Virus record (IMG/VR): IMGVR_UViG_2563366989_000001
DNA from: a virus
Lineage: Duplodnaviria; Heunggongvirae; Uroviricota; Caudoviricetes
Direction: 5' to 3' (one strand)
DNA length: 37,433 bases
Shown: in pieces, positions 1 to 28,818 of the stretch
How positions within the stretch are numbered: position 1 is the stretch's first letter
Layout of the letters: each line of letters opens with the position of its first letter
Notes under the pieces: generated by a model
Database searches by the model: none
Told to the model about the DNA's origin: nothing
The model's input: the letters and a program-made list of their open reading frames with translations, nothing else
Made by a program: the position numbers and the translations under genes

Positions 1-657
1 TTATGAACTATAATAAGTCCTAATCTTTACAGATGAAAGCATAATCTTCCAAGCTTGATCGCTACCCAACCACTCATCGTTGGTTGGTTCATTATCACCA
101 GATACTACATAAGTATCTGGCATATCAAAGTCTATATTGCAAAGGTCTTCTCCTTTGCGCTCCTTAAAAATAAGAAGATCTATTTTTGTTGTTGGGAATT
201 TTTTATCCAAAACACTTCTCAGTTTATACACAGCATCTCGTTCTGCATTCAATCTAACGAGTAAAACACGTTCCGACTCATTGATTTTCTCTATAAATCT
301 TTTTCTTCTCGCCTTTATTTTTTTCATCATATTAAACAAGCAGACTTCAATACCTTGTTTTTCATAGTCATCAATAAGAATATCGTGAATACTTCGAAAT
401 CCAGTCGCTGTATCTGTGATATCAATACAATTTTTAAATCTGCCATTAATTTTTATATTTTCAGGCAAGAAAAGGTGGTCGCACCCCTTATTAATTATTT
501 TTGTAACTTGAGGTAGTTTTTGAGAGGCAAACCAATCAAATGGTCCACTAAATGTCCTCAACCCAAATCGCTTTAACCTTCCTGCTGGTTGACATTTTTT
601 ACCAAGGCTTGCTATAAAATCATACTCTCCACAAGGAAGAAAAAGGCCTTTATTCAT
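1..657 (-). CDS. Hypothetical cargo protein with GPFDW motif, possibly DUF1796-like (recalled family); function unknown
   Basis: ORF 1..693; ATG at 657 has AGGA 7 nt upstream, alternative ATG at 693; stop at 1-3; AT-rich composition unlike the phage core. Confidence 0.5.
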   Translation of the reverse strand: MNKGLFLPCGEYDFIASLGKKCQPAGRLKRFGLRTFSGPFDWFASQKLPQVTKIINKGCDHLFLPENIKINGRFKNCIDITDTATGFRSIHDILIDDYEKQGIEVCLFNMMKKIKARRKRFIEKINESERVLLVRLNAERDAVYKLRSVLDKKFPTTKIDLLIFKERKGEDLCNIDFDMPDTYVVSGDNEPTNDEWLGSDQAWKIMLSSVKIRTYYSS

Positions 658-774
658 ATGATTTTCCTTACATTTTATGACGACAAAAATCATAACATTG
701 CCTTATTAATCAGTCAAACAGTTAACAAAAGCAAACAAACAAGTAAGCACATTGTTGATAATTTGTTTATTTTT

Positions 775-1389
775 ATGTTTTTGTTATCTATACCATTTTT
801 TTCATTTGCTTCTGATACAAACAAAACGCCACCATATCGCATGAGGGAGTCGATGTTTGAGTTATTAAAGGAGCAAAGGGATATTGTTATGCTTGGCGAT
901 AGCATAACCGCGCGAGGAGAGTGGAATGAGCTTCTTCCTAGTTTATCTGTAGCAAATAGGGGCATTGGGGGAGATGAAGTTAAATTTATGAAAAGAAGGA
1001 TTGATTCTATATTTTTATTAAAGCCCAAATATGTATTCATTATGGGCGGAACAAATGATTTCAGAAGAAAAAGAAGTGTTGATGATGTGGTTCGTGACTA
1101 TAAGCATATAATAAAAAAACTACACAAACACAGAATTAATGTATTCATTCAGTCCACCCTTTACGTGTCAAGAGAAAGCAGGTTAAATGACAACATAAAA
1201 ATATTAAAATTAAATAATGCAATAAATAACTATTGCTCTGTATCTAATTATTGTCGTTTCGTAGATCTTAACGTGCACATGGCAAAAGATAGAAAAATAC
1301 TAGCTAAGTATAGCGATGATGGAGTCCATCTAAATGGTAATGGGTATTTAATGTGGGCGTCAATCATATACCCTTTAATTAAAAAATAA
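775..1389 (+). CDS. SGNH/GDSL-family hydrolase (esterase/acyl-modifying enzyme), probably secreted
   Basis: GDS block (MLGDSITA), GGTND block and DGVHLN block in correct order; hydrophobic N-terminus MFLLSIPFFSFA; start uncertain (ATG 775 or ATG 658 in the same frame; the listed 589 start is TTG). Confidence 0.55.
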   Translation: MFLLSIPFFSFASDTNKTPPYRMRESMFELLKEQRDIVMLGDSITARGEWNELLPSLSVANRGIGGDEVKFMKRRIDSIFLLKPKYVFIMGGTNDFRRKRSVDDVVRDYKHIIKKLHKHRINVFIQSTLYVSRESRLNDNIKILKLNNAINNYCSVSNYCRFVDLNVHMAKDRKILAKYSDDGVHLNGNGYLMWASIIYPLIKK

Positions 1390-1396
1390 GAATAGT

Positions 1397-1427
1397 AAAA
1401 AACCATCTCATTATGAGGTGGTTTTTT
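1397..1427. terminator. Bidirectional intrinsic terminator between convergent cargo gene and tailspike gene
   Basis: Hairpin ccatctca/tgaggtgg (one G-U pair) flanked by an A-run upstream and a T-run downstream. Confidence 0.65.
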
Positions 1428-1508
1428 ATATAGAATAAAGCAATAGAGGTTTATTTTATTTGTTTATCATGGCTTAATGCACTAGCACTTTAATTGAAAA
1501 AACTATAT

Positions 1509-3908
1509 TTATTTTAGTATCCATCCGGTATTTCCTGTTCCTGTTTTTTTTTGATACCAATCACCATTATAATCAATGTACATTGACCCCTGAGGTGCGG
1601 TCACAACACCCTCAGGTGAACCGGAGCCTCTATAAATTCCAAAGAGAGTTGTACCTCTTACTTTCTCGTATGCAAACAACAAACCATCTGAAGCCCTTCT
1701 GATACGCAACGGTTCGTGCTCTGAGTCCGATGCAAATGTAGTGGTGCCGTTTGAATCTGTTTCCCTGGAAAAACTTCCATCTGTTCTTGTTCCTTCAATG
1801 ATCGAATTTGGGTAGTTTGGATCATCAGATGAATGTAACCTAATATAGGAACTATTTGATGCTGATACCCCCCTCCCCCTTAAAATCAATCCCTTAAATG
1901 ATGACGTAAATAGTGCCTGGATTGAGCCATAAACAGTGTTATCACTACCGTTTTGCTGATCGTATATTCTTAGTCTTGAGCTATTATCATACATAATAGC
2001 GTCGAAGTACTCACCAAGACGTTCGCTAAATGCAACAATATTAAAAGCATTGCGCCATCTAAATGATATATTTCGCCCGCTTTCTCCGGCATCTACACCT
2101 GCATTACTTGAAGCATTGGTTATGCCAGAATTAAGGTTCTGCTCATCGTTGTTACCAGTCGCTGGTCGTATAGAGTAAATTGTCTTTTTCTCAAGAGAAT
2201 AGCTACTTCCCCATCCATAATCTGTATCAGGACTCCAGTCTCCAGAATTTGCATCCTTGGTTGTTTCCACCCAATAAGAGCCATTTGATGGAGGAACACC
2301 AATTATTCCAGAAGTCTCAATAGATGATGCAGCCCATCTTCTTCCACGCCAGTTTACAATATTAGCTCCTGCCCTCCATGTTTCTATGCAGCTTATAATT
2401 ATTTCTTCGCCACGAATAGTTAAACCTTCCGGCTCGAATCTGGCTGGATTCCCAAGAGTTGGATGGTTAAGCAACCCATCGCGCCCATATTGCGACCTTG
2501 CATCATCGATATCTAATTTTCTTAGTAAATTACCTGTTAAATCATATGTAAAGATATGATGCTTTCCAAAAGCATTAGTGCCTCCCTTAAGTATATGTAT
2601 ATATCTTCCATCAGACGCAATACCTTGTACAGAGTAAGCGCCTTCAGAAGGTGAGTCGCTCATTTCCCAAACAAACATGGGGTTTGCTAATGTTTTATCT
2701 TCAAGTTTATCAATTGATATTTTATCGTATATAAATACAGTTCGTTTAGCGGCATCACTCTTTGGTGTATTAACCATTATTAAAAGACGACCGTCAGAAG
2801 AAATGGCAATTCCTGCACGATTGTAATCTTGAAATGGGTGACCGCTACCAGTAATCCCCCATACATTATAACTTTTTACGTCAGACTGAGTTGTTCCTGC
2901 CCCTCGCCAAGTTATTTTACTAAACCCTTTGCCTGCAGACTCCCCATCTTCACCTGAATTGGTTACACTTGATGTATATAAATATACTTGACCATTCTCC
3001 ACCATGGCAGAAAGATCAAATCCGTGCCCAAGGTTTAATTCTGGAGAATACGCAACATGGTTTACTACCCTTCCATCATCATAAAGATTAAACTCAACAA
3101 TACGAACTCTTTCTTTATCCGACCAGGTTGGCCCAACAGGCCGTTGTGTGACAAATAGTTTTTCAATGCCATTAACACGGCAATATGCGATCCCCTGTAA
3201 CGCATTTCTGGCATTAGGATAAATTTCTGTGTTTGTTTCTCCCTGAAAACCAAAAAAAGGTTCCATCATTTTTCTCTGCGCAAGTTTGTCAGTTTCAAGT
3301 AGACGAGAAACGGAAATAAGAGAGCCATTATCTGCAACAATCCTCCCAATACCTCGAGCAGAAGATACATCAACTTCGAGAGTATTTACTGCAAAATCGC
3401 CATCAGGAACAAACATTCTATAGCCTGCGTTAGAGAATGCCTCAGTAGCGTCAGTTATTCCATCACTGATAGCCCCCCAACCGCGAACATCTTTGTCATC
3501 ACGCCATCGTGCAATCTGCAATTCGGGATATTTTTTAGCACCATCCGGGTCTTCTAACTGCTGCCGTAGCTGATCCGGGTCATACTTCAGCACATTAGGG
3601 AAATAGAACTGCTGAGTGCCATATGCATCATATACAGCCATAGAATGGCCTTGAACAGTTACGAATTTGGCAATCTGCCCGTTATATACCGGATATCCAG
3701 CAGCGTTAATGATGATTGGCTGCGAAACAGGAACATGAGAGCCGTCTTCGTTCTCTACATAAACCTGAATCTGGTTTTCTGGACTTACCGGGTCAGTGTC
3801 AATTTTTCCGATATAAATTTTGCCGTTGGCTACTGCTTTAAAAGAACGCGCCATAGTGAAGAGTTGCGAAGGCATACTCACTACAACATTGGCTGTAATG
3901 TCTGTCAT
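1509..3908 (-). CDS. Tailspike protein: P22 gp9-like N-terminal particle-binding domain fused to a divergent receptor-binding/enzymatic domain
   Basis: First ~110 aa ([11 protein letters not shown]...[12 protein letters not shown]...[13 protein letters not shown]) match the P22 tailspike head-binding domain as recalled; the remainder does not resemble the P22 endorhamnosidase. Confidence 0.85.
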
Positions 3909-4072
3909 TTAATTTTCTCCAGACGTAGCAATGCGGAACAAGATGCAACTTGCCCGGCATTGCATTAATGTAAGTTATGATTTGTTAACTATGAGATGAG
4001 TCTATGCAAAAAGATCAGTTGAATATTGCGTTCTATATATTTGGTTTTTGCACATTTCTGGTGTTTGCAAAG

Positions 4073-20423: not shown

Positions 20424-20499
20424 TGGTGCTGGTTAACGGACTTGAACCGCTACCCATTCGCTTACAAGGCGACTGCTCTACCATTGGAGCTAAACCAGC
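20424..20499 (-). tRNA. tRNA-Thr (anticodon UGU)
   Basis: Hand-folded cloverleaf: perfect 7-bp acceptor stem, D-arm GCTC/GAGC with GG in the loop, anticodon loop CTTGTAA, T-loop TTCAAGT, encoded CCA end. Confidence 0.7.
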
Positions 20500-20504
20500 A
20501 TGTT

Positions 20505-20579
20505 TGGCGGGACAGCGTGGACTCGAACCACGATAAGAAGATTAACAGCCTTCCGTAATGACCTTTATACGACTGACCC
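20505..20579 (-). tRNA. tRNA-Asn-like (anticodon GUU), imperfect; possibly a degenerate or phage-adapted tRNA
   Basis: Anticodon arm GAAGG-CTGTTAA-TCTTC and T-arm CGTGG-TTCGAGT-CCACG resemble E. coli tRNA-Asn; acceptor stem has a U-U mismatch, D-stem only 3 bp; encoded CCA. Confidence 0.5.
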
Positions 20580-23410: not shown

Positions 23411-23738
23411 CGAAATTCTTCTCTTTAATTCCAGCGGCTCTGATAGCTTTCATTACTGCAATTACCGTTTTGTCACGCCCATCCTCATAACCCATCGCAT
23501 AAGCACCTTCTTCACCATCTTTCCAAAAGTCGTCATTCGATTCTGGCCAGTCGATATCCAGTTCAATAGCTGCTCGCGATGCCTGCCATAAAGTCCACCA
23601 CTCATTTAAGGAGTGACGAATATCCATGCTTGAAAATGCGAAGTACCTATCACCATTTCTTGCCTCGGTTATCATCTCGAATGGTAATCTCAATTTTTTG
23701 GCAACGTATTCCTCAAACTGCTTTCTTGATTCGTCCAT
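23382..23738 (-). CDS. Hypothetical protein (ren/NinA position)
   Basis: 118-aa acidic ORF between helicase and ninB. Confidence 0.5.
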   Translation of the reverse strand: MDESRKQFEEYVAKKLRLPFEMITEARNGDRYFAFSSMDIRHSLNEWWTLWQASRAAIELDIDWPESNDDFWKDGEEGAYAMGYEDGRDKTVIAVMKAIRAAGIKEKNFDEANNIPPN

Positions 23739-23755
23739 CGGTACTTACCCTCAGT

Positions 23756-23962
23756 TCAACTCACAAAACGCCACGCCACTTTTGCTACGACAACAGGCAT
23801 AACACCGATAATCACCCACAGGAAAATGCTACCGAAAAGCACACCAACCAGGTCTTTACCTTCGCCTACCAGCCGGACAAAACTGCTGGCAACCACAATG
23901 AACGTCGCCACCATCCACATAGCACCGAGAATCCTCAATGCAGAAAAAATCAACTCAACCAC
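23756..23962 (-). CDS. Small hydrophobic (two-TM) protein
   Basis: 68-aa ORF, GTG start with GGAG about 7 nt upstream; hydrophobic throughout. Confidence 0.4.
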   Translation of the reverse strand: MVELIFSALRILGAMWMVATFIVVASSFVRLVGEGKDLVGVLFGSIFLWVIIGVMPVVVAKVAWRFVS

Positions 23963-23976
23963 GATTTACTCTCCCC

Positions 23977-24009
23977 AAAATAAAAAGGCCTGCGATTACC
24001 AGCAGGCCT
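23977..24009 (-). terminator. Intrinsic terminator after the helicase gene (tR2 analogue preceding nin region)
   Basis: Perfect 8-bp stem aggcctgc/gcaggcct, 8-nt loop; minus-strand U-tract UUUUUAUUUU. Confidence 0.65.
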
Positions 24010-24034
24010 GTTACAAGCTCAGTGATGTAGATGG

Positions 24035-25411
24035 TCATACGTCAGCCCCTTGTGCATATCGTCTGCCACGCGAAGCAGGTGCATTTGATGCTGTGCAAAT
24101 CTGTCTGGCTTCATCCTGGTCACATGCAACAAAGTGTCCGTTGCAGAACCGCTGGTAAACCGTACCAAGCGAGCCAAAACGGTTTTTCGTCACAATGATT
24201 TCAGCAAATGGCGCGGCGCTACTGTTCTCGTCATATACCGCTTCCCGATAGAGCATGATGATTGAGTCTGCGTCCTGCTCAATGCTTCCTGAATCACGCA
24301 AATCTGCGTTTGTCGGGCGTTTGTTTGGTCGCTTCTCAACATCGCGCGAAAGCTGACTTAGGGAGATAACAGGCGTTTTCAAGTCTTTCGCCATCGCCTT
24401 CAGGCTTCCTGAGATGTGAGCAATTGCGAGGTCGTTGCGGTCTGCTTTCGGCTTCTCAATCAGGCCAAGATAATCCGCCATGATGAGTGAGAGGTTTGGA
24501 TTTTCCTGTTTGTGCCGTTCTGCGATTGAGCGTATTTCTTCGACCGATAACCGCGAGGCATCGACTACCCATACATCCAAATCTGCAAGCTGACTCATGC
24601 CGTTAGCAACACGTGCCCAGCCCTCGTCATCCATTGATGCAGGATTTCGCAGTACGCTAACCGACATCCTCCCGGCGTTGGCAATGCTTCGCTCTGCAAT
24701 CTGCAATGCGCTCATTTCCATTGAGAAAATCAATACTCCGCGCCGGACGTCAGAACCAGGAATAACGCGGCTTGCAACGCCTTCGGCAATCTTCAGCGCC
24801 AGTTCGGTTTTCCCCATACCAGGACGAGCAGCGATTATCACCAGGTCTTCCGCGTTCATCCCTCCGGTGATGGCATCAAGTTCTTCGATTCCGGTCTTCA
24901 GGGTATCTGACTCTTCTCCGTTCCTCAGACGCCTGTCAAGCGTGTCAGTGTAGTCAGTAATGATTTCCCCTAACCGTACAGGTTTAACCTCGTCACGGGG
25001 CTTTCTGATGGCTGAAAGACGCTTTACAAGTTCATCCATCGCCTGACTCGATGCGTCGATGGTTCCGCTCTGAATTGGTTCACGCATTTCATCCATGATT
25101 TCCAGCACCAGACGGCGGTGATAGTTATCCGCGACCATTCCGGCATATCCCTTCAGGTTTGCGGCACTCGGGCAGTTTTTGCTGGTCATCAGGATTGACG
25201 TGAAATGCTCCTCTCCGCACGCCTCGGCAACCATCAGCGCATCGATTAGGTTTCTGTTTCTCGCCTGCTTGCGGATAACCTCGAAGGCTTTCCGGTAGAG
25301 CGGAATTGAAAACGCTTCCGGCTCCAGCGTTGCCAGAACGTCGCTGGCGGTTGGTGTTAATCCACCAATCAGCAGGCCACCGATAACGCTCGCTTCGATA
25401 TCCTGTCTCAT
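24035..25411 (-). CDS. Replicative DNA helicase (DnaB family)
   Basis: 458 aa; Walker [13 protein letters not shown]; overlaps the initiator gene by 4 nt. Confidence 0.9.
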
Positions 25412-26229
25412 GTAATCCCCCTGTCTGCAAACTTCCCTTCCCGAACTCCCGTTAACGAGTCTTCCCTCAGCAGGTAATCAAAATCAGCCGTCCAGCCCGT
25501 GTCGTTGTCTCCGAAGTAAAACGGCTTGGCCTGATGCACAAACGCCCTGACATACGCTCTGAAACCGTCCACGTTTGGCGTTTTCAGTTGCGGGATGATT
25601 TTCTTCAGGCGGCGTTTGCGTTTCTCGTTGACCGCAACAGCGTGTGGCAGTCTGTCACCGACTTCGGTGTTGTAGGCGTTCAGGAAGGATTCGTAGTCGA
25701 TTCGTTCTGCCTTGCGACGTTCAGGTTTAACCTGCCCATCGCCACCCCCGTTAGGGGGTAAGGGGGTATTTGTATTTATTGTCTTTTGTATATTGTCTTT
25801 TGTGTTTAGCTGACTTGGCTTATACCCATTAGCCGACTTGGCTAATGTTTTATTAGCTGTTTTAGCTAATGTTAAGCTGTCCTGGCTAATCCACTGAGAA
25901 ACCACCTTGTTCACTCCGATTTTCACGCCATCAGCAATGAGGAATTTACGCTCGATAAGCTGGCGCTTGGCAGCGCAAACATGAGTGTGATGAATACCTG
26001 TCATGGCTGCTATCTGCGTGTTTGTGAGTCGATCCATCGGCTTATTGAATCCGTATGTCTTGCGCATGATAGCGAGCATCACCTTCAACTGCCGGACGGT
26101 TAAATCAGCCATCAGCAGACTGTCGGTAATCTCGTTAGCAACGCGCATGAAACCATCTTCGGTATCTGCCACGCGATGCTCCACGACCTCAAGTTGAGGC
26201 CTGTAATCAGCTAACTTAACGACGCCCAT
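25408..26229 (-). CDS. Replication initiator (lambda O-like N-terminal domain)
   Basis: [37 protein letters not shown] resembles lambda O N-terminus; iterons lie inside the gene. Confidence 0.85.
25768..25889. repeat. Origin of replication: four phased iterons plus an AT-rich tract, inside the initiator gene
   Basis: ttagctgacttggct / ttagccgacttggct / ttagctgttttagct / taagctgtcctggct at roughly 21-23 bp spacing (25806-25889); AT-rich 25768-25805 with duplicated attgtcttttgt. Confidence 0.7.
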
Positions 26230-26377
26230 GTTTCACTCCTGCTTTGGCTAGTCTGTAAACACCAACAAGGCGCTCTGCGAACGCCCTGTTATTTGCTGCG
26301 GCTACCACTAATCCCTCAGGTGAATCAGGGTGTCGAATCTCTTCTTTTTCCTGGTATTTCTTACGACGTTTTGTCAT
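26216..26377 (-). CDS. Possible small basic protein (53 aa) between cII and the initiator gene
   Basis: ATG 26377 with AGGAG 5-6 nt upstream; MTKRRKKYQEKEE...; end overlaps the initiator start; below the ORF-track length cut-off. Confidence 0.3.
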   Translation of the reverse strand: MTKRRKKYQEKEEIRHPDSPEGLVVAAANNRAFAERLVGVYRLAKAGVKHGRR

Positions 26378-26409
26378 AATTACTCCTGTGGATTGATCCA
26401 GTAATTCCC

Positions 26410-26706
26410 TCAGAATTGCATATCAATTTGCTTAAAATCCTCGGTGGCGGCCGGGGATTTTTTCTTTGTGATTTCATCAAGCGCATACTTAAAAGCCCTG
26501 CTAATCGGACTGATGTCTGATGCCATTCCGAAAGCACACAACACCGAAGCAATAAATCTCCAGTCCGTTCTGCTTATCTTCGATTCATGACAGCCAATCA
26601 TCTTTGCCAGACCGCGCTGGGTAAGCGTTGACAGGTTGATGAGTAAATCAGTTTCAGCGCGATCAACGTCACGCTGTGATAGTTTGCTGTAACTTGTTCT
26701 TTCCAT
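26410..26706 (-). CDS. cII: cII-like lysogeny activator
   Basis: GCHESKISRTDWRFI...KKKSPAATEDFKQIDMQF parallels lambda CII (HTH and C-terminal KKRPAATE...Q.EF). Confidence 0.75.
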   Translation of the reverse strand: MERTSYSKLSQRDVDRAETDLLINLSTLTQRGLAKMIGCHESKISRTDWRFIASVLCAFGMASDISPISRAFKYALDEITKKKSPAATEDFKQIDMQF

Positions 26707-26822
26707 TTCTTAAGATTTCCAATAGTGAATAGTTAGTTGAAAGGTATGCGTGGAAACGCATATGGCCTTAGTTGGTCAGATATATTGGGACTCGCTTTTC
26801 AGCGACGTAGGACGAATGTCCG

Positions 26823-26837
26823 TTGTTACAAAGAGCG
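26823..26837 (-). promoter_or_regulatory. Candidate nutR boxA
   Basis: Minus-strand CGCTCTTTGTAACAA 11 nt after the cro stop, followed by a short hairpin (ggac-attc-gtcc). Confidence 0.45.
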
Positions 26838-26847
26838 GATCCGCTTA

Positions 26848-27063
26848 TTAAGCAGCTTTGTGTTCCGGCGGGAACACGTCATCAAGACTGACTTTTGCGC
26901 CTAACTTGTTTAGGCACTCAACAAGAGCACGGCATGTTTTAAGGTCTGGGAAGCGACGACCAGATTCCCAATGTCCGATAGCTCCCTGTGTGCATCCAAC
27001 TGCCTTAGCAAGTGTTGTTTGAGAGATATTCAGTGACTCTCGATATTTTCGTAGGTTGCTCAT
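26848..27063 (-). CDS. cro: Cro-like repressor
   Basis: 71 aa from ATG 27063 (GGAGG 4 nt upstream); HTH ISQTTLAKAVGCTQGAIGHWESGRR; the longer listed ORF is an upstream extension. Confidence 0.8.
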   Translation of the reverse strand: MSNLRKYRESLNISQTTLAKAVGCTQGAIGHWESGRRFPDLKTCRALVECLNKLGAKVSLDDVFPPEHKAA

Positions 27064-27089
27064 ATGCCCTCCATAGTAATCACAATGCA

Positions 27090-27118
27090 ATAATACGATA
27101 TGTACTTTTAGAATGCAA
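27090..27118 (-). promoter_or_regulatory. pR promoter for cro
   Basis: Minus-strand TTGCAT-17 bp-TATTAT about 27 bp upstream of the cro ATG. Confidence 0.6.
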
Positions 27119-27166
27119 ACAAAAAAATACATCTTGTGCATGGATGATTTTAGTACAGAGCGTAAT
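27092..27166. promoter_or_regulatory. Candidate OR operator region (two related 15-mers)
   Basis: aatacgatatgtact (27092-27106, overlapping pR -10) and agtacagagcgtaat (27152-27166) share the AGTACA...CGTA.T pattern with a site at pL. Confidence 0.4.
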
Positions 27167-27175
27167 AATAAGGGT

Positions 27176-27835
27176 ATGAAAATGAAATGGTATGAACTGG
27201 CTAGATCCAGAATGAAAGAGCTCGGCATAACTCAAGAGAAGTTAGCTGAAGAGCTTGGTATGACGCAGGGTGGAATTGGTCACTGGTTGCGCGGATCTCG
27301 TCATCCATCTCTTGACGAGATTGGTGTGGTGTTTAAATACCTTGGTATTGATAACGTCTCATTCAACCACGACGGTACATTTTCACCTGTTGGCGAATAC
27401 TCATCTGCCCCCGTTAAAAAACAATATGAGTACCCTGTTTTTTCTCATGTTCAGGCCGGGATGTTCTCGCCTGAGCTTAGAACCTTTACCAAAGGTGATG
27501 CGGAGAGATGGGTCAGCACAACCAAAAAAGCCAGTGATTGTGCGTTTTGGCTTGAAGTTGAAGGTAATTCCATGACCGCGCCAACAGGATCCAAGCCAAG
27601 CTTTCCTGACGGGATGTTAATTCTCGTTGACCCTGAGCAGGCTGTTGAGCCAGGTGATTTCTGCATAGCCAGACTTGGTGGTGACGAGTTTACCTTCAAG
27701 AAACTGATCAGGGATAGCGGTCAGGTGTTCCTACAACCACTAAACCCGCAATATCCAATGATTCCATGCAATGATAGCTGTTCCGTAGTAGGGAAAGTTA
27801 TCGCCAGCCAGTGGCCTGAAGAGACATTTAGTTAA
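27176..27835 (+). CDS. cI: Immunity repressor cI: distinct N-terminal HTH domain fused to a lambda-cI-type C-terminal dimerisation/autocleavage domain
   Basis: C-terminal ~125 aa ([34 protein letters not shown]...[11 protein letters not shown]) almost identical to lambda cI as recalled; N-terminal HTH differs; start at ATG 27176 or 27182 (ATG 27113 lies in the pR -35). Confidence 0.85.
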
Positions 27836-27857
27836 CAGCCTCACCACTCTAAAACAC

Positions 27858-27887
27858 ACAACAATAACCCGACCTTAGCGTCGGGTT
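27858..27887 (+). terminator. Intrinsic terminator after cI
   Basis: acccgac-cttagc-gtcgggt hairpin followed by ttttcttttt. Confidence 0.7.
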
Positions 27888-27961
27888 TTCTTTTTCCAAA
27901 ATATAAATCAATAAAATACAAAGTGTTATAAAAAACTAAACCATATTTAGAACATTTTGTA

Positions 27962-27990
27962 TTGACTCAGTAAAGTACACATCGTACTAT
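27962..27990 (+). promoter_or_regulatory. pL promoter with overlapping operator-like palindrome
   Basis: TTGACT-17 bp-TACTAT; agtacacatcgtact (27974-27988) overlaps the -10 and resembles the OR 15-mers. Confidence 0.55.
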
Positions 27991-28036
27991 TTAGCCATCA
28001 GCAGGAAGCTGGAAGCCAAACGGAACAGACTGGCAG

Positions 28037-28064
28037 GCTCTTTAAACAACGTCGAACACTCGAC
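28037..28064 (+). promoter_or_regulatory. Candidate nutL (boxA plus adjacent hairpin)
   Basis: GCTCTTTAAACAA (boxA-like) followed by gtcga-acac-tcgac hairpin, in the N leader. Confidence 0.45.
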
Positions 28065-28107
28065 TACGTGGCTGAAAAGCCAGATCACCCAACCACATAA
28101 GCTGTGG

Positions 28108-28155
28108 GATGCAATGCCGAAGCAACTCTCTCAGGAGTAGCTTCGGGATTGCATC
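28108..28155 (+). other. Large leader hairpin upstream of the N-like gene (candidate RNase III/translation-control structure)
   Basis: 16-nt arms gatgcaatgccgaagc / gcttcgggattgcatc (one mismatch), 16-nt loop; ends 15 nt before the N SD. Confidence 0.5.
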
Positions 28156-28180
28156 GCCAGAGTTTATTCGGGAGGAATCC

Positions 28181-28453
28181 ATGTCCAGAAAAACAGAATT
28201 TAAAGGAACCGCAGCTTCTCGCCGTAGAGATCGTCGCGCAAATCTGCAAAGTCAGGAGGCGATCAGCTCCGACAAGCTACACAGGCCAACCCCTTCACGA
28301 GTGGTCTTGCAATGCAAGCGCAAACCAGCAATGAGAGCAGAAGTGATAACTCTGACAACGTTGACCAGAAAATATGAAGGTTCAACTTGTCTTCCGAACG
28401 TAGCTATTTACGCGGCAGGCTACCGGAAATCAAAACAACTGACGGCGAGGTAA
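28181..28453 (+). CDS. N-like transcription antiterminator (P22 gene 24 type)
   Basis: Arg-rich motif ASRRRDRRANLQ near the N-terminus; C-terminus AIYAAGYRKSKQLTAR resembles P22 gp24; ATG 28181 with GGAGG upstream. Confidence 0.75.
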   Translation: MSRKTEFKGTAASRRRDRRANLQSQEAISSDKLHRPTPSRVVLQCKRKPAMRAEVITLTTLTRKYEGSTCLPNVAIYAAGYRKSKQLTAR

Positions 28454-28455
28454 TT

Positions 28456-28818
28456 ATGGGTCAGGAAGAAAAATATGAGCTTAAAAAGCTCATTGAAGAA
28501 GACGCCATAGAAGAAATTGCAGCATTAACAACAGCTATAAAGAATATTAGGTATGCGCTAAATACGCTTATCTCCTCATGCGACAAAAATAGCAGGGAAT
28601 TTTTGATACTTGGCGCAGCTCTAGGAATAGTTGATGCGGCAACGCTTCACCTAATTACTCATGACGATATTCTTATTGAGCCGTATGAAACATTACTGCT
28701 TGTCAGGCAAAAAATGGCTGATGCCGCAGCAAATGGAGACCTTCAACTTTACATCGACTTAAGGAAAGTATTAAGGCGAATGGTCAGAACTGAAGGAGAT
28801 ATCCCCCTGACAAAGTAA
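28456..28818 (+). CDS. Hypothetical early-left protein (ral/gene-17 position)
   Basis: 120 aa from ATG 28456 with GAGG upstream, directly after the N-like gene. Confidence 0.5.
   Translation: MGQEEKYELKKLIEEDAIEEIAALTTAIKNIRYALNTLISSCDKNSREFLILGAALGIVDAATLHLITHDDILIEPYETLLLVRQKMADAAANGDLQLYIDLRKVLRRMVRTEGDIPLTK

Follow-up and report, generated by a model that had tools for sequence, protein, structure and literature searches.

Initiation at the replication origin of phage lambda has been reviewed (PMC5043065, PMC7466680), and the repeats of phage P22 have been described in the phage L paper. Iteron-type plasmid origins (Rep/pi/RepA), like the locus considered here, have an initiator-binding repeat array beside an AT-rich unwinding element (PMC5043065). 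HK97 has furthermore been listed as a replication-specificity type (PMC2629481), and a module of the HK97 type occurs, according to the literature, in Salmonella phage ST104. In the literature that could be searched, neither an explicit description of HK97-type iterons nor an experiment on their binding by O, on unwinding or on origin activity was found, and the stretches retrieved from the HK97 and Nil2 records lack an annotated rep_origin. It should also be mentioned that the HK97 genome paper reportedly discusses ori-like repeats.

Here we consider an array of repeats in a stretch of viral DNA of 37,433 nucleotides, which is referred to as the window throughout. The element is very probably the replication origin of an HK97-type lambdoid module, located in the linker-coding middle of gene O, and it is as such an ordinary and already known kind of element, representing the HK97 type within the lambdoid ori family.

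Gene context and anatomy of the array

The window represents the genome of an E. coli phage or prophage resembling P22, CUS-3 and HK620, as seen from a megablast search with positions 12500-37433, which matched CUS-3, Kapi1, vB_EcoP-720R6 and HK620 at 95-97% identity and 31-57% query coverage. The ori array sits in the early-right operon on the minus strand, in the following setting:

27113-27835, plus strand: cI-type repressor
early-right operon region: Cro-type HTH ORF
26410-26706, minus strand: cII (Pfam Phage_CII)
26216-26377, early-right operon: 53-codon ORF
25408-26229, minus strand: O-type initiator gene, 273 aa (Pfam Phage_rep_O, PF04492, E=5.8e-33, residues 19-113)
25891-26229, minus strand: N-terminal origin-binding domain of O, aa 1-113 (Phage_rep_O; predicted winged helix)
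25408-25737, minus strand: C-terminal domain of O, about aa 165-273, presumed to recruit the partner
24035-25411, minus strand: DnaB-like replicative helicase gene of the P22 gene 12/HK97 P type, 458 aa (DnaB_C, E=9.5e-78; DnaB N-terminal domain, E=4.5e-13)

The O gene directly precedes the phage-encoded DnaB-family helicase gene, which overlaps the O stop codon by 4 nt, and no lambda P-type loader is found in that place. The helicase product is annotated as a helicase or DnaB analogue in HK97, Nil2 and P22, and both hallmarks of the P22/HK97-type module of an initiator with its own helicase, namely the helicase partner and a P22 gp18-type C-terminus of O, are found here. An Rfam scan of 23500-28500 (E <= 0.1) gave zero matches and hence no annotated oop-like RNA, and the number of sites found in a promoter and terminator scan of 25300-27300 did not exceed that in shuffled sequence. 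One terminator call in the latter scan coincides with iteron 3 plus a T-run.

The array itself is made up of four 19-bp dyad-symmetric repeats, each of them a 6+5+6 palindrome of the form TTAGCY-N5-RGCTAA, and it begins at codon 114, the DNA-binding domain of O ending with W113. Together with the adjoining elements its parts are, in gene order and with offsets counted from the ATG:

25872-25890, minus strand: iteron 1, ATTAGCCAGGACAGCTTAA (plus strand TTAAGCTGTCCTGGCTAAT); offset 339, codon position 1
25852-25870, minus strand: iteron 2, ATTAGCTAAAACAGCTAAT (plus strand ATTAGCTGTTTTAGCTAAT); offset 359, codon position 3
25828-25846, minus strand: iteron 3, ATTAGCCAAGTCGGCTAAT (plus strand ATTAGCCGACTTGGCTAAT); offset 383, codon position 3
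25805-25823, minus strand: iteron 4, adjoining the AT tract, ATAAGCCAAGTCAGCTAAA (plus strand TTTAGCTGACTTGGCTTAT); offset 406, codon position 2
25767-25804, minus strand: AT-rich tract, presumed DNA-unwinding element, 38 bp with 8 G/C (21% GC)
25744-25759, strand not applicable: GC-rich inverted repeat ACCCCC-GTTA-GGGGGT, at about the place of the 434/lambda-type dyad

The start-to-start spacing is 20/24/23 bp in the direction of the gene (23, 24 and 20 on the plus strand), corresponding to about two helical turns. Iterons 2 and 3 are perfect 7+5+7 palindromes with no mismatches to TTAGC-N7-GCTAA and form hairpins as single-stranded DNA, and each of the outer iterons has one degenerate outer arm, which is the promoter-distal arm in iteron 1 and the promoter-proximal arm in iteron 4. 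This degeneracy is likewise seen in relatives, in which both the outer-arm degenerate half-site of iteron 1 and a TAAGCC/TTCGCC left arm of iteron 4 recur.

A degenerate 16-mer pattern has exactly four matches in the 37.4-kb window, all of them at the ori array, where 0.09 are expected from 100 shuffles, none of which reached four matches; a chance origin of the array is rejected on these grounds. Since the 16-mer pattern was built from the four copies themselves, this count is circular, and a more independent check is provided by TTAGC-N7-GCTAA, which with at most one mismatch likewise matches the window only at the four iterons. Neither search revealed a second cluster of iteron sites elsewhere in the 37.4-kb window. 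Binding sites for the immunity repressors were also considered and rejected, the iteron motif being absent from the operator region 26707-27112.

The initial annotation, made from the letters alone, had claimed four related repeats at roughly two-turn spacing, followed in the direction of transcription by an AT-rich tract, as a copy of the lambda ori architecture inside an O-like gene. The repeats and their spacing are borne out by the four sites at 20/24/23, and the tract is indeed present at 25767-25804 with 21% GC; the architecture is supported by the PF04492 initiator and by a gap-free register with 434 and P22. The proposed extent of 25768-25889 is correct to within one base at each end as far as the repeats and the tract are concerned, but omits the GC-rich hairpin at 25744-25759.

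Conservation and inheritance of the iterons

To place the array among its relatives, 80 related loci were fetched from IMG/VR by alignment of the N-terminal domain and reduced to 61 distinct ori regions, the N-terminal domains of which are 53-100% identical to that of the window. A diverged set of 20 representatives, none of them reaching 93% identity over the array and all with N-terminal domains 53-77% identical to that of the window, gave the following conservation:

Iteron arms: mean 1.81 bits; codon positions 1/2/3, 1.79/1.85/1.79
Central 5-bp spacers: mean 1.16 bits; 1.12/1.30/1.03
Inter-iteron linkers: mean 1.17 bits; 1.08/1.33/1.10
AT tract: 1.68/1.61/1.69 bits at codon positions 1/2/3
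O N-terminal domain, 97 ungapped codons: 1.50/1.70/0.70 bits at codon positions 1/2/3
Flanking coding DNA: mean about 1.0 bits

The relaxation at wobble positions that is evident in the N-terminal domain is absent in the iteron arms and in the AT tract, and both are therefore constrained as DNA. As far as the aligned sequences go, selection is thereby shown to act on the DNA of the iterons and not on the peptide that they encode.

Conservation of the repeats among phages with the same N-terminal domain was the point on which the initial annotation had let its reading stand or fall, and the repeats are conserved: TTAGCY-N5-RGCTAA at 20/24/23 is found in 52 of the 61 distinct ori regions, two of which (L045 and L046) bear two further copies upstream, and the remaining 9 form a side group with the close variant arm TTAGCK-N5-TGCTAA in 24-bp steps, although these counts do not represent independent events, since the relatives compared are phylogenetically related. 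Members of the side group (L078-L088) combine the variant arm and the 24-bp spacing with KHHTH in the candidate recognition segment of O, and a minority of the close relatives (among loci L010-L043) have a single-base change in a spacer or an arm. Further afield, the N-terminal domain, the repeats, the C-terminal domain and the partner are found in different combinations, with identities given relative to O of the window:

Yersinia 06.16-1: N-terminus 64%; repeats TTAGCC...GGCTAA (same arm); this C-terminus absent; partner a helicase
Cronobacter phiES15: N-terminus 59%; same repeats in six copies; this C-terminus absent; partner a lambda P-type loader
P22: N-terminus 43%; repeats TTTACC-N5-GGTAAA; C-terminus 61%; partner a helicase
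Salmonella ST415_1NRH: N-terminus 43% (P22 type); P22-type repeats; C-terminus 98%; partner a helicase
Gally: N-terminus unrelated; 12-nt-periodic CCGCACATGA repeats; C-terminus 99%; partner a helicase
434/lambda type: N-terminus 43%; repeats TCCCTC-N5-GAGGGA; this C-terminus absent; partner lambda P

The C-terminal domain of O is thus 98-99% identical in ST415 and Gally, whose N-terminal domains and repeats are of other classes, it is 61% identical in P22 gp18, and it is absent from phiES15, Yersinia 06.16-1 and 434. Stx2a_EH0505 resembles Gally in having another N-terminus and CCGCACATGA repeats, and a tblastn match to O of the window covers only residues 144-272, at 95% identity. Where the N-terminus is of the P22, lambda or HK620 type the repeats are different, including cases in which it is fused to the same C-terminus. 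Within the sequences compared, the iteron type is hereby shown to be inherited with the N-terminal domain of O and not with the C-terminal domain or with the helicase or loader partner, and the modular rule that iterons go with the N-terminal domain and the partner with the C-terminal domain is illustrated cleanly. The further proposal of the initial annotation, that the iteron sequence would define the replication specificity of the phage, is consistent with this co-inheritance.

The notion that the repeats are a by-product of a low-complexity peptide linker between two domains, with no function as DNA, stems from the observation that iterons 2 and 3 share a reading frame and encode LAKTAN and LAKSAN, and the AlphaFold2 (AF2) pLDDT of less than 50 for residues 109-175 likewise suggests a flexible linker at this place. 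The four iterons use three reading frames, however, and iterons 1 and 4, read in the remaining two, encode ISQDSL and KPSQL, which are unrelated peptides. In addition, the third codon positions of the arms are as conserved as the first and second (1.79 bits, against 0.70 bits in the N-terminal domain). Both the dyad symmetry and the spacing of 20/24/23 also persist where the flanking protein has diverged. A peptide-repeat origin is thus largely ruled out by the analysis of frame and wobble, and we regard a linker by-product as exceedingly improbable. 

An origin function may also be questioned on the grounds that the sites could bind O mainly for control, that is in autoregulation, titration, handcuffing or superinfection interference, with the true start of replication lying elsewhere. 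Plasmid-borne lambda iterons do indeed inhibit the replication of rep-lambda phage, for which titration or handcuffing has been proposed (PMC3349717), and plasmid iterons have dual roles of this kind (PMC5043065). Such a reading is nonetheless highly improbable, as iterons, AT tract and dyad preserve the register of the complete lambda ori anatomy, the AT tract next to the iterons is strongly conserved at the DNA level and no second cluster of sites is found anywhere in the window, and a role in control would in any case add to an origin function and not replace it. A reading of the array as a non-functional remnant within a defective prophage carries a probability close to negligible. It is true that many prophages are defective and that the same 166-bp segment is found in 441 of 5,426 complete E. 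coli genomes, mostly in the chromosome. But neither O (273 aa) nor the helicase (458 aa) is truncated or carries a nonsense or frameshift mutation, both share 99% identity with their counterparts in plaque-forming phages such as HK97, mEp213 and HK544, and the four iterons fit the family consensus as well as the copies of those phages themselves. Furthermore, the remainder of the window contains full-length ORFs whose sizes correspond to those of the genes for head, tail, lysis and immunity in P22-like phages.

The AT tract, the downstream dyad and the O protein

Seen as an origin, the locus would be expected to work as lambda and P22 do, and it is by analogy with these that we infer binding of O, its dimer stoichiometry, melting of the AT tract, recruitment of the helicase and firing of this particular copy. 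Dimers of O would bind the four dyad iterons through the N-terminal winged-helix domain and form an "O-some" over about 86 bp, the strain of which, together with transcription of the rightward operon and negative supercoiling, would open the adjacent 38-bp AT tract. The C-terminal domain of O would then recruit the phage's own DnaB-like helicase, encoded immediately downstream, in place of the lambda P-DnaB complex, whereupon host primase and polymerase would begin theta replication.

The AT tract lies promoter-distal to the iterons, the gene being on the minus strand, and codes for a 13-residue peptide. The 40-nt window starting at 25767 has a GC content of 0.20, which is the lowest in both replication genes and within the lowest 0.8% of the whole window. 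The tract carries two 14-bp direct repeats, ACAAAAGACAATA twice in the direction of the gene, and its motif is common to P22 and lambda/434. The C-terminal module begins past the tract, and the exchange with Gally and EH0505 maps close to residue 144 (nt ~25800), within the conserved tract, which may therefore also act as a homologous joint for exchange of modules.

The inverted repeat at 25744-25759 lies about 42-45 nt past the start of the AT tract. Of 47 distinct oris, 35 have their best perfect hairpin, counting stems of 5 bp or longer, 41-46 nt past that start. The stems vary among oris (CCCCC/GGGGG, TCTGC/GCAGA, GTCATC/GATGAC, CCCAC/GTGGG, ACCTCCC/GGGAGGT), and the commonest of them is explained in part by coding for Pro-Pro/Gly-Gly. 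Taken one by one, the downstream hairpins are weak in comparison with shuffled sequence (p 0.005-0.25), such that no single hairpin is significant and only their positional consistency is persuasive. The hairpin at 25744-25759 is hence tentatively regarded as a further element of the ori. When folded as single-stranded DNA, the 156-nt ori is predicted to form hairpins at the iterons as well as the GC hairpin, with the AT tract left unpaired (-23.8 kcal/mol, z = -5.6).

With respect to the O protein, only four columns in an alignment of 21 N-terminal sequences separate carriers of TTAGC iterons from the P22 (MAPTK) and lambda (LPVKR) types, and these define the candidate specificity residues:

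25981-25995, minus strand: I79, H80, H81 and H83

An AF2 model from an alignment of 28 homologues (70-86% identical) is of low confidence (pLDDT 51.5), for which reason only its secondary-structure pattern was used, and a model from the single sequence was unusable (pLDDT 38). The pattern of helices at 45-58, 70-77 and 81-93 and a beta hairpin at 97-106 is that of a winged helix, and in this low-confidence model I79, H80, H81 and H83 are found at the turn and start of the third helix (81-93). The part spanned by residues 109-175, which includes the ori-coding region, is the one with a pLDDT of less than 50. All matches from a Foldseek search of the PDB with the model were MarR-type winged-helix dimers, none of them significant (E >= 0.02), and PDB sequence searches with the protein and with the 21-sequence N-terminal profile gave no meaningful match, leaving Phage_rep_O without a solved structure detectable by sequence. 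The winged-helix fold and the assignment of a recognition helix are consequently only suggestive, since the model is of low confidence and the fold matches are not significant. It should also be mentioned that two positions distinguish the arms of P22 from those of the HK97 type, and that the change is mirrored in both half-sites as a symmetric dimer contact predicts.

A more far-reaching reading may be put together from these observations, in which the ori would reach past the iterons in two respects that the searched literature does not describe. Replicons whose iterons and C-termini are unrelated share an AT tract that contains the repeated ACAAAAGA motif and is conserved at all codon positions. 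The tract is perhaps a sequence-specific element, such as a site for single-strand binding of O or for helicase entry, and it could serve as well as a homologous joint at which modules of N-terminus and iterons are transferred to different modules of C-terminus and partner. The dyad about 42-45 nt further along, constant in position and symmetry but variable in sequence, would suggest a structural role, for instance that of a hairpin or cruciform. As a separate point, I79, H80, H81 and H83 might constitute a simple recognition code for the TTAGC half-site. We consider this reading possible, but rather unlikely.

Little of the above is new, and it is confirmed that a lambdoid origin is recognisable from raw sequence alone. 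What is gained are precise coordinates and a consensus (TTAGCY-N5-RGCTAA four times at 20/24/23) for a class of ori that is unannotated in the HK97 and Nil2 stretches retrieved and occurs in some 8% of complete E. coli genomes (the 166-bp segment in 441 of 5,426), Stx-converting phages included. The consensus could improve the annotation of prophages and the prediction of replication-specificity types, and could likewise aid the design of origin-decoy or incompatibility experiments. Palindromic ori iterons have furthermore recently been proposed as hairpin triggers for the OLD and Lamassu defence systems, so the HK97-type iterons may be relevant to such studies.

Comparison with known origins

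The features of a lambdoid ori that can be judged from sequence are all found at this locus: it lies inside a Phage_rep_O gene between the N- and C-terminal parts, it has four 19-bp dyad iterons at about two-turn spacing and, promoter-distal to them, a 38-bp AT tract, and its iterons co-vary with the N-terminus. The array aligns without gaps and copy for copy with the annotated rep_origin and four gpO sites of 434, with P22 gene 18 and with Yersinia vB_YenM_06.16-1, and in all four aligned oris, each of them with 20/24/23 spacing, a nearly identical AACACAAAAGA...CAAAAGA tract comes next, which can be written AACACAAAAGAcA.T.ATACAAAAGA.

In iteron-type plasmid origins the repeats are as a rule situated outside rep, and a Rep with two winged helices binds them as a monomer; no sequence relationship between these origins and the ori array was seen. 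The lambda/434 origin (ori-lambda), made up of ITN1-4, an AT-rich region and a right-hand palindrome, has four 19-bp dyad iterons at 20/24/23 in the same place in the homologous gene O, an AT tract that opens with the AACACAAAAGA motif, and an inverted repeat ~40 nt further on, which in the 434/lambda type is TCAGAGAATTC-TGGC-GAATCCTCTGA and lies at about the same place as the 25744-25759 repeat of the window. It differs in its TCCCTC/GAGGGA arms, in an unrelated C-terminal domain of O and in its partner, which is the loader P that hijacks host DnaB.

P22 shares with the window the gene order orf48-18-12, four dyad repeats at 20/24/23 right after the N-terminal domain, a nearly identical AT tract and CCCCC/GGGGG hairpin, and a DnaB-like helicase (gene 12) as the partner. 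The N-terminus of gene 18 is however only 43% identical, the arms are TTTACC/GGTAAA as opposed to TTAGCC/GGCTAA and the recognition segment is MAPTK and not IHHTH, and a different replication specificity is predicted from these differences.

The closest counterpart is the O (gp54)/P (gp55) module of HK97, which is 99% identical in nucleotide sequence over O and its flanks, positions 25300-26400 being 99.0% identical to HK97 genes 53-O-P. The same segment is 98.7-99% identical in mEp213, HK544, HK446, Nil2 and many Stx-converting phages, and the HK97-type module is also present in the Stx phages 1717, 2851 and YYZ-2008. The iterons, the AT tract and the hairpin of HK97 are essentially those of the window and the partner is the same DnaB-like helicase, with nothing material that differs in the module. 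The backbones do differ, since the module of the window resides in a P22/CUS-3-like podophage and that of HK97 in a siphophage, but this is ordinary lambdoid mosaicism.

Half-sites within the iteron array

The outermost half-sites of the first and last iterons (window 25805-25823 and 25872-25890) are degenerate, and the same positions are degenerate in the relatives. In nearly all of the 20 representatives, which are diverged relatives less than 93% identical over the array, these outer half-sites read AGCGAA/GGCAAA/AGCTTA and TAAGCC/TTCGCC, whereas the six inner half-sites stay close to consensus in the 20 representatives. This pattern of degenerate outer and near-consensus inner half-sites may be the sign of an affinity gradient along the array.

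Iteron types and numbers in related O genes

The initiators of the IMG/VR loci L078-L088 form a side group, in which the candidate recognition segment of the O N-terminus reads KHHTHCSTAK, and their iteron arms follow the variant TTAGCK-N5-TGCTAA in 24-bp in-frame steps, about 30-130 nt past the N-terminal domain. Four copies are found in L078 and L088 (24/24/24), and two clear copies in the remaining loci.

The O genes of phages Gally and Stx2a_EH0505 have the C-terminal domain in common with the window (99% and 95%, respectively) and a different N-terminus. Instead of palindromic iterons they contain CCGCACATGA repeats with a 12-nt period, grouped in two clusters and located as follows:

L006:1058-1212, CCGCACATGA repeat region of phage Gally
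L005:1070-1212, CCGCACATGA repeat region of Stx2a_EH0505

These repeats apparently constitute a separate iteron class. Six TTAGC-type iterons rather than four are furthermore found in the oris of the IMG/VR loci L045 and L046 and of Cronobacter phage phiES15 (L008:1234-1355), which parallels the lambda-type oris with six iterons of the Stx phages 933W and P27.

The left end and the tRNA genes

Window 1-4050 contains numerous stretches of 25% GC or less, in contrast to the remainder of the window (47% GC overall), and this difference suggests that a tailspike or host-modification region was acquired here by horizontal transfer. Two tRNA genes are phage-encoded:

20424-20499, minus strand, tRNA-Thr(UGU)
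20505-20579, minus strand, tRNA-Asn(GUU)

Phage-carried Thr(UGU) tRNAs have been described to rescue HK97-like phages from the P2 OLD tRNase (2026 preprint).

The cII-O neighbourhood

Two features lie near cII and O:

26434-26461, plus strand, 12-bp GC-rich hairpin followed by a T-run, antisense to the cII 3' end
26216-26377, minus strand, 53-codon ORF between cII and O, overlapping the O start

The hairpin is found where an oop-like antisense RNA would be expected to terminate and is by its position a candidate for such a terminator; a search of window 23500-28500 gave no Rfam match of any kind (E <= 0.1), and hence no annotated oop-like RNA. The 53-codon ORF has its counterpart in gp53 of HK97, and its position matches that of orf48 in P22.
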